Part shown: one piece after another, positions 1 to 9,291 of the stretch | Numbering within the stretch: the stretch's first letter is position 1 | Layout: each line of letters opens with the position of its first letter | Virus record (IMG/VR): IMGVR_UViG_2778261509_000008 | DNA from: a virus | Lineage: Duplodnaviria; Heunggongvirae; Uroviricota; Caudoviricetes | Length of the DNA stretch: 9,291 nucleotides | Reading direction: 5' to 3' (one strand) | Made by a program: the position numbers and the translations under genes | The notes under the pieces: model-generated | What the model saw: only the letters and a program-made list of their open reading frames with translations | What the model was told of the DNA's origin: nothing | Database searches by the model: none

Positions 1-99
1 AGTCATCGGGCATTATCTGAACATAAAACACTATCAATAAGTTGGAGTCATTACCACAAAAGTAATCCTTGCTATGGGTGGTTAATCATGCGTTAATGG

Positions 100-249
100 T
101 GTTCTGGTTTGTTACAAATTTATCTGAAGCAGTCATTGTTATAATTTTATTATTTGTACCTCTTGAGATTTCCTTGTTGGTTTTTCTCTCTGATATTTTT
201 TTTTCGGACCATTCTGCCCAAGGGCTAATTTCTTCAAAAGGTAATAATT
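100..249 (+). promoter_or_regulatory. Putative promoter and long AT-rich 5' leader of the cold-shock gene
   Basis: AT-rich untranslated stretch directly upstream of the csp ATG, with an SD-like aagg at 238-241 and a tataat hexamer at 140-145. CspA-family genes are known to carry long structured leaders. No convincing -35 element at proper spacing was found, so the promoter position is not resolved. Confidence 0.3.
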
Positions 250-462
250 ATGTCTAACAAAATGACTGGTTTAGTGAAATGGTTTAACCCTGAAAAAGGT
301 TTTGGTTTCATCACGCCGAAAGATGGCAGCAAAGATGTGTTTGTCCATTTCTCAGCAATTCAGAGCAACGATTTCAAAACATTAACTGAGAATCAGGAAG
401 TTGAATTTGGTATTGAGAACGGACCTAAAGGTCCTGCCGCTGTTCATGTAGTGGCGCTTTGA
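250..462 (+). CDS. cspI: Cold-shock protein, CspA family (70 aa), CspI-like
   Basis: 70-aa ORF starting [23 protein letters not shown] with RNP1-like KGFGFI and RNP2-like VFVHF motifs, diagnostic of the cold-shock domain. SD aagg sits about 8 nt upstream of the ATG. The sequence matches my recollection of E. coli CspI (Qin prophage), which I could not verify by search. Confidence 0.9.
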
Positions 463-472
463 GGTAGACAAT

Positions 473-661
473 ATTACAAACCATATTCACTTTAGATGCC
501 CGTGTTGTCATGGTTCCCAGTATAGAACATCATCTTTTGATGTTTCTGACATGAATCCTTTCGGGGCAAAATGTATCTTTTGTAAATCAATGATGATTAC
601 ATTTGATAATATTTCACAATACTTAAATGCCAGCCGTCTGTCGTTGGATTTAAAAAAGTGA
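473..661 (+). CDS. Small zinc-ribbon-like protein (ynfQ/ymcF-like); start codon uncertain (ATT at 473 or ATG at 551)
   Basis: Reading frame is open from 452 to the TGA at 659-661 and encodes two CxxC pairs (CPCC ... CIFC) about 20 residues apart. The only ATG in frame is at 551, downstream of the first Cys pair. An ATT at 473 lies 8 nt after a GAGGT SD-like motif (461-465) and would give a 62-aa product. A strong intrinsic terminator follows at 666-689. A small gene between csp and ynfN/gns matches the cspG-ymcF-ymcE-gnsA / cspI-ynfQ-ynfN-gnsB arrangement as I recall it. Confidence 0.4.
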   Translation: MTNHIHFRCPCCHGSQYRTSSFDVSDMNPFGAKCIFCKSMMITFDNISQYLNASRLSLDLKK

Positions 662-665
662 AAAT

Positions 666-689
666 GAAGGCTCCTTCGGGAGCTTTTTT
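666..689 (+). terminator. Rho-independent terminator after the csp / zinc-ribbon ORF unit
   Basis: Stem gaaggctcc / ggagcttt around a TTCG tetraloop (675-678), immediately followed by a T6 run (684-689). It begins 5 nt after the stop at 659-661. Confidence 0.65.
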
Positions 690-733
690 GCTTGGTGTCT
701 ATTCGATGGATACTCACATACTACGGTAACATC

Positions 734-964
734 ATGAAAAAAATCATAGTTTTTTTTAACTCTGAACCAGCAGTGGTAGTGCCAGCGATGACTGGAGTTA
801 ACACCATCATGCGTGAATATCCAAATGGCGAAAAAACACACCTTACTGTAATGGCCGCAGGGTTTCCATCTCTGACCGGAGATCATAAAGTCATTTATGT
901 AGCCGCGGATCGACATGTTACTTCAGAAGAAATTCTGGAAGCAGCAATAAGGCTCTTGAGTTGA
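734..964 (+). CDS. Small hypothetical protein, YnfN/YmcE-like (76 aa from ATG 734; alternative start ATG 809 gives 51 aa)
   Basis: ORF ends at TGA 962-964. In-frame ATGs are at 692, 734 and 809 and none has a strong SD. Position between a csp gene and a gns gene matches ynfN (Qin) and ymcE as I recall them. The 51-aa form from 809 (MREYPNGEKTHLTV...) matches the size I remember for K-12 YnfN. Confidence 0.55.
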   Translation: MKKIIVFFNSEPAVVVPAMTGVNTIMREYPNGEKTHLTVMAAGFPSLTGDHKVIYVAADRHVTSEEILEAAIRLLS

Positions 965-1135
965 TTTGATGCTATTGCATTGATAATTCAGGAAAATTCT
1001 CTTTGTCTGTTTGTGTAAAATTTAGACTATCGTATGTTGATTATTGCGATGTTTCATCTTATCTTTTACACGTTTGCACCATATAATCGACTTACTGTGT
1101 AACTGGAAAGTCATAACAGACTAAAAGAGGAAATG

Positions 1136-1309
1136 ATGAATATTGAAAACTTAAAAACAAAAGCAGAAGCAGATATTTCTGAATATATAACAAAAAAAAT
1201 TATTGAACTTAAGAAAAAGACCGGGAAAGAAGTTACCAGTATTCAGTTTACCGCACGGGAAAAAATGACGGGTCTTGAAAGCTATGATGTCAAGATTAAT
1301 TTAATCTGA
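1136..1309 (+). CDS. gnsB: GnsA/GnsB-family protein (57 aa)
   Basis: ORF MNIENLKTKAEADISEYITKKIIELKKKTGKEVTSIQFTAREKMTGLESYDVKINLI. SD aaagagg at 1123-1129 precedes tandem ATGs at 1133 and 1136. The C-terminal FTAREKMTGLESYDVKI matches my memory of GnsA/GnsB. This ORF is under 60 aa and is absent from the supplied ORF track. Confidence 0.8.
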   Translation: MNIENLKTKAEADISEYITKKIIELKKKTGKEVTSIQFTAREKMTGLESYDVKINLI

Positions 1310-1336
1310 TGTATTCAATAATAAAATTTATCCATA

Positions 1337-1360
1337 AACCTCGTTTTTACGGGGTTTTGT
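1337..1360 (+). terminator. Putative intrinsic terminator downstream of the gns gene
   Basis: Hairpin ccucg (1339-1343) / cgggg (1350-1354) with one G-U wobble pair and a 6-nt loop, followed by tttt g tt. It lies 28 nt after the gns stop. Confidence 0.45.
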
Positions 1361-1423
1361 TATATTTGAATGGTTCCGAATATCTAAATCACAATTGTTG
1401 ATGGTTTTTATTAAACCAATGCA

Positions 1424-1452
1424 GTCCGGCTCAGGAGTGAGAGAAGCCGGAC
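1424..1452 (-). terminator. GC-rich hairpin in the convergent intergenic region (possible weak or bidirectional terminator for the ydfO-like gene)
   Basis: Perfect 8-bp inverted repeat gtccggct (1424-1431) / agccggac (1445-1452) with a 13-nt loop, 8 nt downstream of the minus-strand stop at 1461-1463. The flanking U-tracts are weak on both strands, so terminator function is uncertain. Confidence 0.35.
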
Positions 1453-1460
1453 GTTATGGT

Positions 1461-1871
1461 TTAGCGTGGTAAGATCTGTGTAGTTTTCTGGATGCTTTCA
1501 GTAAATAGTAATGAATTATCAAAGGTATAGTAATATCTTTTTTGTTCGTGGATATTTGTAACCCACCGAAAAACTCCTGCTTTAGCAAGGTTTCTTCTGT
1601 ATTCCTGAAATGTGATCTCTCTGGATTTCAGCTTATTAGAGGTCGTTTCTATAAGATGCCTATCCTTTGAAAATTTGACAGACACAATGTTTTTTAGGCC
1701 CTTTAATAACACTGTATTATCATTTTTTAATACAATATGAACATTCTCTGTGGCTAAATAGTAAATGTAATGTGAGACATTGTGACGTTTTAGCTCAGAA
1801 TAAAACCATTGATAGTTTAAATCGTTTCGAACTTTATCAAATATTTGTTTAAAAATGACTACCTGATCCAT
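1461..1871 (-). CDS. ydfO: DUF1398-family protein, YdfO-like (136 aa)
   Basis: Minus-strand [34 protein letters not shown]... The ORF track begins 5 codons upstream at 1886 (MEGLS), but the GAAGG SD is positioned for the ATG at 1871. The sequence matches my recollection of the YdfO/YbcV/YcgX (DUF1398) prophage family. Confidence 0.8.
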
Positions 1872-1928
1872 AGATAAACCTTCCATGTGATATGAGGGGG
1901 CGTAGTCTGCACGATTATCTAAATTGCT

Positions 1929-2162
1929 TCAATCTGGTCTGACCTGTTTTCTGAGCAATTCAGTAATGTCACTCTTTTCTTTGTTTGCTTCAGGAGAAAC
2001 TCTTTTTTCTGAGCACAGTCTCCGGCGGCAGGCTTCAATGACCCAGGCTGAGAAATTCCCGGACCCTTTTTGATCAAGAGCGATGTTAATTTGTTCAATC
2101 ATTTGTTTAGGAAAGCGGATGTTGCGGGTTGTTGTTCTGCGGGTTCTGTTCTTCGTTGACAT
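1929..2162 (-). CDS. ynfO: Small basic protein with predicted ribbon-helix-helix (CopG/Arc/MetJ-like) DNA-binding fold, YnfO-like (77 aa)
   Basis: Minus-strand ORF with a basic N-terminus (TKNRTRRTTTRN), then a beta-strand-like IRFPKQMIEQI and helix-like segments (NIALDQ ... FSAWVIEACRRRL), a pattern typical of RHH proteins. Weak SD ggga upstream. The RHH fold is inferred from sequence pattern only. Confidence 0.65.
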   Translation of the reverse strand: MSTKNRTRRTTTRNIRFPKQMIEQINIALDQKGSGNFSAWVIEACRRRLCSEKRVSPEANKEKSDITELLRKQVRPD

Positions 2163-2289: not shown

Positions 2290-2550
2290 ATGCACGTTGT
2301 GACATGTAGATGATAATTATTATCATTTTTCGGGTCCTTTCCGGCGATCCGACAGGTTACGGGGCGGCGACCTCGCGGGTTTTCGCTATTTATGAAAATT
2401 TTCCGGTTTAAGGCGTTTCCGTTCTTCTTCGTCGTAACTTAATGTTTTTATTTAAAATACCCCCTGAAAAGAAAGGAAACGACAGGTGCTGAAAGCGAGC
2501 TTTTTGGCCTCTGTCGTTTCCTTTCTCTGTTTTTGTCCGTGGAATGAACA
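2290..2550 (+). other. cos: Lambda-type cos site (cosQ, cosN, cosB) for DNA packaging
   Basis: The lambda cohesive-end sequence GGGCGGCGACCT is at 2362-2373, preceded by the lambda right-end motif gacaggttacg. cosB-type heptamers CGTTTCC are at 2414-2420 (R3) and 2515-2521 (R1), with GGAAACG at 2475-2481 (R2, inverted), and an A/T-rich IHF-like stretch at about 2441-2458. A 15-bp inverted repeat gaaaggaaacgacag (2471-2485) / ctgtcgtttcctttc (2511-2525) is present. Nu1 starts at 2551. Confidence 0.85.
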
Positions 2551-3070
2551 ATGGAAGTCAACAAAAAGCAGCTGGCTGACATTTTCGGTGCGAGTATCCG
2601 TACCATTCAGAACTGGCAGGAACAGGGAATGCCCGTTCTGCGAGGCGGTGGCAAGGGTAATGAGGTGCTTTATGACTCTGCCGCCGTTATAAAATGGTAT
2701 GCCGAAAGGGATGCTGAAATTGAGAACGAAAAGCTGCGCCGGGAGGTTGAAGAACTGCGCCAGGCCAGCGAGGCAGATCTCCAGCCAGGGACTATTGCGT
2801 ACGAACGCCATCGACTTACGCGTGCGCAGGCCGACGCACAGGAACTGAAGAATGCCAGAGACTCAGCTGAAGTGGTGGAAACCGCATTCTGTACTTTCGT
2901 GCTGTCGCGGATCGCAGGTGAAATTGCCAGTATTCTCGACGGGATCCCCCTGTCGGTGCAGCGGCGTTTTCCGGAACTGGAAAACCGACATGTTGATTTC
3001 CTGAAACGGGATATCATCAAAGCCATGAACAAAGCAGCCGCGCTGGATGAACTGATACCGGGGTTGCTGA

Positions 3071-8106: not shown

Positions 8107-8439
8107 ATGACGAGCAAAGAAACCTTTACCCATTACCAGCCGCTGGGCAACAGTGACCCGGCTCATACCGCAACCGCGCCCGGCGGATTGAGTGCGAAAG
8201 CGCCTGCAATGACCCCGCTGATGCTGGACACCTCCACCCGTAAGCTGGTTGCGTGGGATGGCACCACCGACGGTGCTGCCGTTGGCATTCTTGCAGTTGC
8301 TGCTGACCAGACCAGCACCACACTGACGTTCTACAAGTCCGGCACGTTCCGTTATGAGGATGTGCTCTGGCCGGAGGCTGCCAGCGACGAGACGAAAAAA
8401 CGGACCGCGTTTGCCGGAACGGCAATCAGCATCGTTTAA
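8107..8439 (+). CDS. D: Head decoration protein gpD (110 aa)
   Basis: [30 protein letters not shown]..., 110 aa, starting 10 nt after the C stop. The ORF-track start at 8101 adds two codons. Matches lambda gpD as recalled. Confidence 0.93.
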
Positions 8440-8459
8440 CTTTACCCTTCATCACTAAA

Positions 8460-8481
8460 GGCCGCCTGTGCGGCTTTTTTT
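8460..8481 (+). terminator. Terminator-like hairpin with T7 tract in the D-E intergenic region
   Basis: Stem gccgc (8461-8465) / gcggc (8470-8474) with loop ctgt, followed by ttttttt (8475-8481). It lies 14 nt upstream of the E start codon. It is probably read through under Q antitermination in an active phage; this is inference. Confidence 0.45.
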
Positions 8482-8494
8482 ACGGGATTTTTTT

Positions 8495-8770
8495 ATGTCG
8501 ATGTACACAACCGCCCAGCTGCTGGCGGCAAATGAGCAGAAATTTAAGTTTGATCCGCTGTTTCTGCGTCTCTTTTTCCGTGAGAGCTATCCCTTCACCA
8601 CGGAGAAAGTCTATCTCTCACAAATTCCGGGACTGGTAAACATGGCGCTGTACGTTTCGCCGATTGTTTCCGGTGAGGTTATCCGCTCCCGTGGCGGCTC
8701 CACCTCTGAATTTACACCGGGATATGTCAAGCCGAAGCACTTAGCATGGCTTTCTGAGGCTTTCGTGTAG
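8495..8770 (+). pseudogene. E: Major capsid protein gpE, 5' fragment only (first ~82 codons, then unrelated sequence)
   Basis: Begins MSMYTTAQLLAANEQKFKFDPLFLRLFFRESYPFTTEKVYLSQIPGLVNMALYVSPIVSGEVIRSRGGSTSEFTPGYVKPKH, matching the lambda E N-terminus as recalled. It then continues as LAWLSEAFV and stops at 8768-8770. Full-length lambda gpE is 341 aa, so similarity ends near 8740. Confidence 0.85.
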
Positions 8771-8902
8771 TTGCTGGTTTTTACACTTAATCTTTTGATA
8801 ATAAAGAATAAGTTTATCTGGCGCTTTCACTGAATTTTCCTCGTTATCTGTGTGTTGCAATCATCTCTGTATTGCAGCTTGTATTGCTTTTTGGGGCTAA
8901 AA

Positions 8903-9142
8903 ATGGCTGGCGAGAACAAACTGAGCGACAAAGCGCTTAAAGGATATCTGGGGAAACCCAGAGAAAAGCAGATCACCATTGCTGATGGAAAGGGGCTTTC
9001 TATTCGTGTGAGTACTAAAGGGGCTGTGAGCTTTGTTTTCTTCTACAGGTTAGCAGGTGGCCGGGCTGCTCCGGTCTGGCTAACGTTGGGTAAATATCCT
9101 GATATGTCACTCAAACAGGCAAGGGAAAAGCGCGACGAGTGA
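8903..9142 (+). pseudogene. P4-family tyrosine integrase, N-terminal arm-type DNA-binding domain fragment only (79 aa)
   Basis: ORF MAGENKLSDKALKGYLGKPREKQITIADGKGLSIRVSTKGAVSFVFFYRLAGGRAAPVWLTLGKYPDMSLKQAREKRDE fits the pattern of the N-terminal arm domain (DUF4102-like) of P4-type integrases (LTDK..K. ... DG.GL.L.V...G.K.W..RYR ... LG.YP..SL..AR.KRDEAR). It ends at TGA 9140-9142. None of the three downstream frames continues as an integrase core or catalytic domain. SD-like gggg precedes the ATG. Confidence 0.7.
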
Positions 9143-9203
9143 GCTGGCCCCCTGAAATACCAGACAGTAGATGTATCTTAAAATAAGAGATAGGCTTGGA
9201 TAT

Positions 9204-9291
9204 ATGTCTAACACTAGTTCTAATTTTGAGATGGCTGGCGTTTTGTTAGGAAAAGAGGTGCGTAAACGTAAAACACCTCAGGAAAAAATCG
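9204..9291 (+). CDS. Possible 5' end of an ORF running off the window (MSNTSSNFEMAGVLLGKEVRKRKTPQEKI...), product unknown
   Basis: ATG at 9204 opens a frame with no stop before the window end. The SD is weak and I recognise no similarity, so this may not be a real gene. Confidence 0.2.
   Translation, partial: MSNTSSNFEMAGVLLGKEVRKRKTPQEKI

Follow-up and report, generated by a model that had tools for sequence, protein, structure and literature searches.

The window is the entire 9,291-bp draft contig NLPY01000095.1 (GCA_002231095.1), assembled from short reads, and it carries a lambda-like head module in which an exact copy of the 12-nt lambda cohesive-end sequence (2362–2373) is followed by the genes Nu1, A, W, B, C, and D. 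Their products have 181, 641, 68, 533, 439, and 110 residues, respectively, lengths that we take to equal those of the lambda proteins, and the module is as it had been described in the first-pass annotation, which was made from the letters of the window and considered the region from cos through D to be collinear and apparently intact. Downstream of D lie, in this order, a 5' fragment (E') of gene E, which encodes the major capsid protein, a segment that we assign to the arm of an attachment site, a fragment of a tyrosine integrase gene (int'), and the left end of an insertion sequence. The contig stops 152 bp inside this insertion sequence, and the right IS junction, the remainder of int, the body of the integrated satellite, attR, and the 3' part of E would all lie beyond it.

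The prophage accessory region upstream of cos encodes a 70-aa cold-shock protein (250–462), followed by genes of the GnsAB, DUF1398, and DUF3950 families. The sole Rfam match in the window, at 103–489, is to the cspA thermoregulator (RF01766, 111.9 bits), an RNA element unrelated to the junction treated here. This moron region (window 1–2000) differs from that of the prophage in CB6837 (locus L001), which does not share it and is otherwise 98% identical.

The start codon of E is the ATG at 8495 (not 8496), and E' (8495–8739, plus strand) comprises codons 1–82, ending in GYVKPKH. In protein comparisons, intact major capsid proteins from lambda-like phages share every one of these 82 residues (100% identity), which match the Pfam model Phage_cap_E over profile positions 1–78 of 329. 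At the nucleotide level, identity to lambda-like phages ceases at 8739 (with a query beginning at 8441, the hits cover query positions 1–299 or 2–299), and past codon 82 the reading frame runs through nine unrelated, satellite-encoded codons (LAWLSEAFV; 8740–8770, plus strand) to a TAG at 8768–8770. The loss of E identity near 8740 after GYVKPKH, with a stop nine codons later, had been noticed in the first-pass annotation and is confirmed; we also agree with its statement that no capsid can be made from E as encoded in the window, where residues 1–82 are joined to nine unrelated ones. A divergent but intact E allele was considered as a possible refutation of this picture; E has no in-frame continuation past 8740.

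The 10-bp sequence AGCCGAAGCA at 8730–8739 (plus strand), which falls within E codons K79-P80-K81-H82, corresponds to the identity block, or crossover core, of an attachment site used by helper-embedded phage-inducible chromosomal islands (HE-PICIs), a class of satellites described by Tommasini, Mageeney & Williams (2023, NAR Genom Bioinform 5:lqad036; PMC10111431). In the supplement to that study the core for the site group E:Phage_cap_E:80 is given as aacccaagca (PMC10111431). E' (8495–8739) constitutes the phage-derived B arm of attL, and the segment from 8740 to 8902 (plus strand), upstream of int, constitutes the satellite (P') arm, which is 100% identical to CB6837 and 99.4% identical to other instances and agrees with the attL alignment in supplement file 5 of PMC10111431. 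E is interrupted at codon 80, in that the core spans codons 79–82 and is centred on P80, and direct comparison places the interruption at the same position as in NRG857c (locus L010). In the current Pfam Phage_cap_E model, residue 80 of E aligns to approximately profile position 76 rather than 80, and the site is therefore identified by aligning it directly with the published prototype, 11capE of NRG857c, rather than by the number of the profile position.

The satellite arm also contains the doubled motif of HE-PICIs, tcTGTATTGCagctTGTATTGCt (8866–8888, plus strand), with its two cores at 8868–8875 and 8880–8887. The pattern TGTATTGC-N4-TGTATTGC is found exactly at 8868–8887 and is the single match in the window, with 0.02 expected by chance. 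The published doubled motif, tgTGTATTGCantgTGTATTGCa, is specific to the family and is located on either side of the attP centre, at 132 ± 2 bp downstream of it and at 81 ± 2 bp upstream (PMC10111431). In the window, 131.5 bp separate the core centre (8734.5) from the downstream motif, which starts at 8866, and the partner of this motif in CB6837 ends 81.5 bp upstream of the centre of the attR core. The doubled motif is a proposed binding site for either the arm domain of Int or AlpA. Also in the attL arm, a degenerate third half-site, TGTGTTGC, occupies 8852–8859 and precedes the doubled TGTATTGC motif by 8 bp. A scan of positions 8400–9291 for promoters and terminators yielded counts like those of shuffled sequence, and we therefore make no claim of an int promoter.

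The int' reading frame (8903–9139, plus strand) begins with the ATG at 8903, 132 bp past the stop codon of E' and 163 bp past the breakpoint, and comprises the first 79 codons of an HE-PICI tyrosine integrase gene, followed by a TGA at 9140–9142. The 79 residues match a single Pfam model, Arm-DNA-bind_3, over profile positions 1–65 of 83 and accordingly represent an incomplete arm-type DNA-binding domain. They are identical at 79 of 79 positions to the 411-aa Int of CB6837 and at 78 of 79 positions to the Int of the HE-PICI 11capE in NRG857c, and this N-terminal identity, assessed by pairwise comparison, places int' in the HE-PICI integrase clade; the int regions of CB6837 and NRG857c are themselves 99.9% identical at the DNA level. 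That only the arm-binding N-terminus of an integrase, stopped at 9140–9142, lies about 160 bp downstream of the breakpoint had been correctly recognized before. The sequence from 9140 to 9291 encodes no catalytic domain and consists of the left end of the IS; given that the window is one draft contig, the lack of a catalytic domain describes the contig and not necessarily the genome. A sequencing-type frameshift after which the integrase frame would resume was likewise checked, and int has no continuation there, the IS following directly from 9140. A predicted 391-aa protein from an ENA contig (P0004) combines the Pfam domains Phage_Nu1 and Phage_integrase and shares 81% identity with the HE-PICI Int across 77% of its length; it may be a gene call that runs from a split Nu1 into the Int of an HE-PICI at another late-gene site.

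To place the junction among related genomes, we used positions 8441–9291 as a megablast query against 5,426 complete E. coli genomes. The segment 8441–9141 was matched end to end in 170 of these, with identities of 99.4–99.9% among the 30 matches listed, and with so wide a distribution the junction is no deletion end point peculiar to one genome. In CB6837, which is 100% identical to the window over 8740–9141, the RefSeq annotation shows that the junction is followed by the full 411-aa integrase gene, an HTH regulator, an Icd-like gene, and genes for a primase and SSB, then by a capsid homologue, a decoration gene, and a terS-like gene, and finally by the 3' part of E (annotated as "missing N-terminus"), FI, a head-tail joining gene, and a tail gene. 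NRG857c has the same layout. In both genomes the RefSeq annotation includes the PICI content expected behind int (alpA, Bro zone, primase, and late zone, over ~10–20 kb and without tail or lysis genes). The satellite of CB6837 measures 10.6 kb, and the two satellites are roughly 10.6–11 kb long. The core AGCCGAAGCA is present in CB6837 at both attL (position 12290 of L001) and attR (22861), 10,571 bp apart, and the two ends in NRG857c carry the variant AACCCAAGCA, 11,077 bp apart; of the corresponding pair in the present genome, the attL copy is seen at 8730–8739 and attR would lie beyond the contig end. When the satellite of CB6837 is removed in silico, the joined halves restore an open E frame of 341 aa. 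Because the halves of E are flanked by the 10-mer and yield an open frame when joined, we conclude that the element entered by site-specific integration.

The CB6837 satellite additionally contains (L001 20943–21470) a 96.8%-identical copy of the helper cos and Nu1 5' region (window 2331–2858). Its mismatches are concentrated in the cosN cohesive-end segment, where GGGCGGCGACCTCGCGGG is replaced by GGGCGTCAGGCGCGCAGT, and the flanks are almost identical; judged from the sequence, these mismatches may be relevant to packaging specificity.

These comparisons bear directly on the interpretation offered in the first-pass annotation, namely that a decaying lambdoid prophage was joined, by deletion or recombination, to an unrelated integrative element such as a P4-like satellite or island. 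The window taken by itself, which shows fragments of E and int and nothing further of either gene, is what such a fusion would leave. Against it stand the end-to-end presence of the junction in 170 complete genomes, the full integrase, satellite, and other half of E found ~10.6–11 kb farther on in CB6837 and NRG857c with the 10-bp direct repeat flanking, the exact restoration of E upon in silico excision together with the published precise excision (PMC10111431), the arm motif at its published spacing, and the coincidence, to the base, of the break in int with the terminal TG of an IS. For the 8740 junction, the conserved pair of attL and attR refutes a fusion by deletion or illegitimate recombination, and we assign this explanation a very small probability. 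What stands of it is that two unrelated mobile elements abut near 8740; their description as decayed remnants does not, as the same attL is conserved in 170 genomes. Comparison with related genomes had itself been proposed there, and it did reveal the full-length integrase and island, with the 3' part of E following.

We therefore read the region as the attL of an HE-PICI of the 11capE, or E:Phage_cap_E:80, type in which int was later hit by an ISEc48-like IS, and we put the probability of this reading at about 0.9. E:Phage_cap_E:80 is the commonest HE-PICI site, with 201 instances and a 10-bp identity block (PMC10111431). Neither NLPY01 nor GCA_002231095 is listed in those portions of the supplements to PMC10111431 that were available. 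For 11capE, precise excision after mitomycin C treatment has been demonstrated by qPCR and deep sequencing (PMC10111431). Upon induction the composite is excised and replicated first, and the satellite is excised later; integration postpones expression of the helper capsid until the satellite has excised, and helper replication and late transcription run into the embedded satellite (PMC10111431). In the window, Nu1 through E' as well as int' are all encoded on the plus strand, and the satellite is co-oriented with the late gene that it interrupts and with the late operon.

The second break in the window, at the end of int', has a different origin. The segment from 9140 to the contig end at 9291 (plus strand) is the left end of an ISEc48-like element of the IS3 family, with a left inverted repeat that starts TGAGCTGGCCCCCTGAAATACCAGACAG. 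Positions 9140–9291 are 100% identical to positions 2502–2653 of ETEC1739 (locus L009), RefSeq-annotated ISEc48 copies start exactly at TGAGCTGG, and most matches to annotated ISEc48/IS3 transposase copies begin at query position 41, which corresponds to 9140. In ETEC1739 the complete element (L009 2502–3837) measures 1,336 bp; its terminal inverted repeats, which are imperfect, begin TGAGCTGGCCCCCT and TGTTCTTGCCCCCT, and it carries a CDS annotated as frameshifted (ISEc48-family transposase with programmed frameshift). Transposases of the IS3 family are encoded in two ORFs with a programmed −1 frameshift. In the window, the first of these, orfA, starts at 9231, or at the in-frame alternative 9204, which places its first 20–29 codons within the contig. 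Intact int reads ...GACGAG TGCCGTGG..., whereas the window reads ...GACGAG TGAGCTGG...; the first 2 bp of the IS, its terminal TG, are ambiguous between int and IS. The stop codon of int' is formed by the first three bases of the IS, its terminal TGA. It is this insertion, and no deletion, that accounts for the lack of a catalytic domain in the window. The first-pass annotation did not recognize this third mobile element, the IS inserted at 9140. A perfect direct repeat of 16 bp, tacatgcagtaacacg, lies on either side of the ISEc48 copy in ETEC1739 (L009 2486–2501 and 3838–3853) and is far longer than the target duplications of 3–4 bp usual for the IS3 family.

This int is present in 176 complete genomes and is uninterrupted across the 9140 site in 174 of them, and by megablast the int::IS junction is absent from all 5,426 complete E. 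coli genomes. An identical junction was found in one more assembly, Logan SRR3993777 (L004), which is 100% identical and includes 25 nt of the IS; the int::IS junction rests on these two assemblies, one draft and one Logan, and the latter may derive from the same strain or reads. A gapped pattern search of JGI metagenome contigs for the right IS/int junction returned no matches. After a simple insertion, the sequence beyond the window would be expected to contain the right end of the IS (...GGGGGCAAGAACA), a short target duplication, and int from codon 80 onward (TGCCGTGGTTGG...), and, were the remainder intact, the satellite body would come next, followed by the upstream copy of the doubled motif, another AGCCGAAGCA, and codons 83 onward of E (GAGGTGAATCCG...).

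Some opening is left to an assembly artefact, that is, a chimeric contig or a misjoin at a repeat in a strain whose integrase is intact, since the contig is a draft built from short reads and its end lies in a multicopy repeat. Against an artefact, the break in int coincides exactly with the IS's canonical TG terminus, and SRR3993777, with the reservation just made about strain and reads, has the same junction with 25 nt of IS; we regard an artefact as highly improbable. A sub-variant of the reading that we prefer keeps the attL and the IS and adds a later deletion or rearrangement that was mediated by the IS and ends at it, and by which what remains of int, the satellite, and perhaps also E's 3' part and the tail genes are gone or have moved; true decay would then start at 9140 and not at 8740. 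This would fit a contig that ends in the IS with nothing downstream in view, the lack of a simple insertion at the 9140 site in any complete genome, and the opportunity for IS–IS recombination afforded by up to 27 places matching this IS in related strains. Yet draft contigs end in multicopy IS elements whatever follows, so that the contig end carries no information on this point, and simple insertion is the commonest outcome of transposition. We accordingly consider a further rearrangement unlikely, though worth keeping in mind.

A recurrent hot spot for IS insertion or breakage at int codon 79 was also entertained, as five further assemblies (L002 and L005–L008) gave a 79-aa product with no IS sequence attached, and was rejected. 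Their contigs end at positions equivalent to window 9139, 9140, or 9141, with all three codon phases represented. The look-up picks any contig that ends within that codon, and the five 79-aa products are therefore a selection effect and not evidence; among the contigs retrieved, only SRR3993777 has a real int::IS junction. That five unrelated assemblies end in one int codon is most likely due to this selection, and a common break or fork at this point is less likely.

Taken together, the preferred reading, an HE-PICI attL with a subsequent IS insertion, gives the following history. The tyrosine integrase of a satellite of ~11 kb recombined the 10-bp core of its attP (A[A/G]CC[C/G]AAGCA) with the matching sequence at codons 79–82 of E in a lambdoid prophage, thereby splitting E. 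In the intact system, the composite excises and replicates on induction, and late excision of the satellite restores E (PMC10111431). Later, in the present genome, an ISEc48-like element of the IS3 family entered int after codon 79, leaving a partial arm-binding domain. With Int reduced in this way, the satellite would be without its own means of excision, and E would then remain split and the prophage would have no gpE of its own. To judge from the sequence, the satellite is thus probably locked in place and E is not restorable. Exceptions to the loss of capsids might arise through a related Int acting in trans or through substitution of E by the E homologue of the satellite, which in CB6837 is 41% identical to E. 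A stronger version, in which E is never restored and the IS-locked composite is either a dead end or a helper built with the satellite capsid homologue (41% in relatives), strikes us as quite doubtful. As a further speculation, the surviving arm-domain fragment of 79 residues might continue to bind the doubled motifs and hamper related HE-PICI integrases.

For annotation, the locus illustrates a trap, in that a truncated capsid gene beside an integrase gene in a lambdoid prophage is a signature of an HE-PICI and not of decay. In an intact HE-PICI, E is meant to be restored on excision, and calls of prophage completeness that are based on split late genes would be wrong. Here the IS in int probably makes the interruption of E permanent, which would provide a small natural case in which one mobile element immobilises a second, which in turn inactivates a third.

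The satellite can be set against several known systems. The hallmark genes of P4 are psu, sid, and delta, and its helper is of the P2 type. A P4-like satellite was rejected because none of these genes is annotated in the satellites of CB6837 and NRG857c and the helper is lambdoid; the P4-like trait is limited to the integrase architecture (Arm-DNA-bind_3 plus Phage_integrase in Pfam). The first-pass proposal that the second element is an integrative one with an integrase of P4 architecture is therefore upheld, and the example that it offered, a P4-like satellite, is not. With the cf-PICIs, exemplified by EcCIEDL933, the satellites sharing this attL have in common a major capsid gene homologue of their own. 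The cf-PICI gene set also includes portal, protease, large terminase, and head-tail connectors, whereas the CB6837 and NRG857c satellites are annotated with capsid, decoration, and terS-like genes only and not with portal, protease, large terminase, or connectors, and this class was rejected as well; according to the preprint abstract, cf-PICIs encode all proteins for their own small capsids (bioRxiv 10.1101/2022.09.08.507074). The classical Gram-negative PICIs, for which EcCICFT073 is the model (primary work cited in PMC10111431), resemble the relatives with this attL in their layout of int, alpA-type HTH, primase, and then late genes, the last comprising a capsid homologue, a terS-like gene, and a cos-like region, and in their lambdoid helpers. 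Classical PICIs, however, reside at chromosomal att sites away from the helper, whereas the satellite in the window is embedded in one of its helper's late genes. The IS agrees with ISEc48 of the IS3 family over the 152 bp of its left end that the window holds.

The counterpart of the locus is Eco567.11capE in prophage 50icd of E. coli NRG857c. The two share the target gene, the codon, the place of the core, the distance of the doubled motif, and the orientation within the late operon, the attL given in the supplement matches the satellite arm of the window, and the Int N-termini differ at one of 79 residues. Two synonymous positions, which go with the E allele, distinguish the core of the window from that of NRG857c (AGCCGAAGCA vs AACCCAAGCA), the E 5' side of the window is ~94% identical overall, and, in contrast to 11capE, the int of the window is interrupted by an IS and its satellite body would lie beyond the contig end. 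The HE-PICI system is thus already known and nothing at this locus is new in kind; what the locus adds to it is an ordinary IS insertion.
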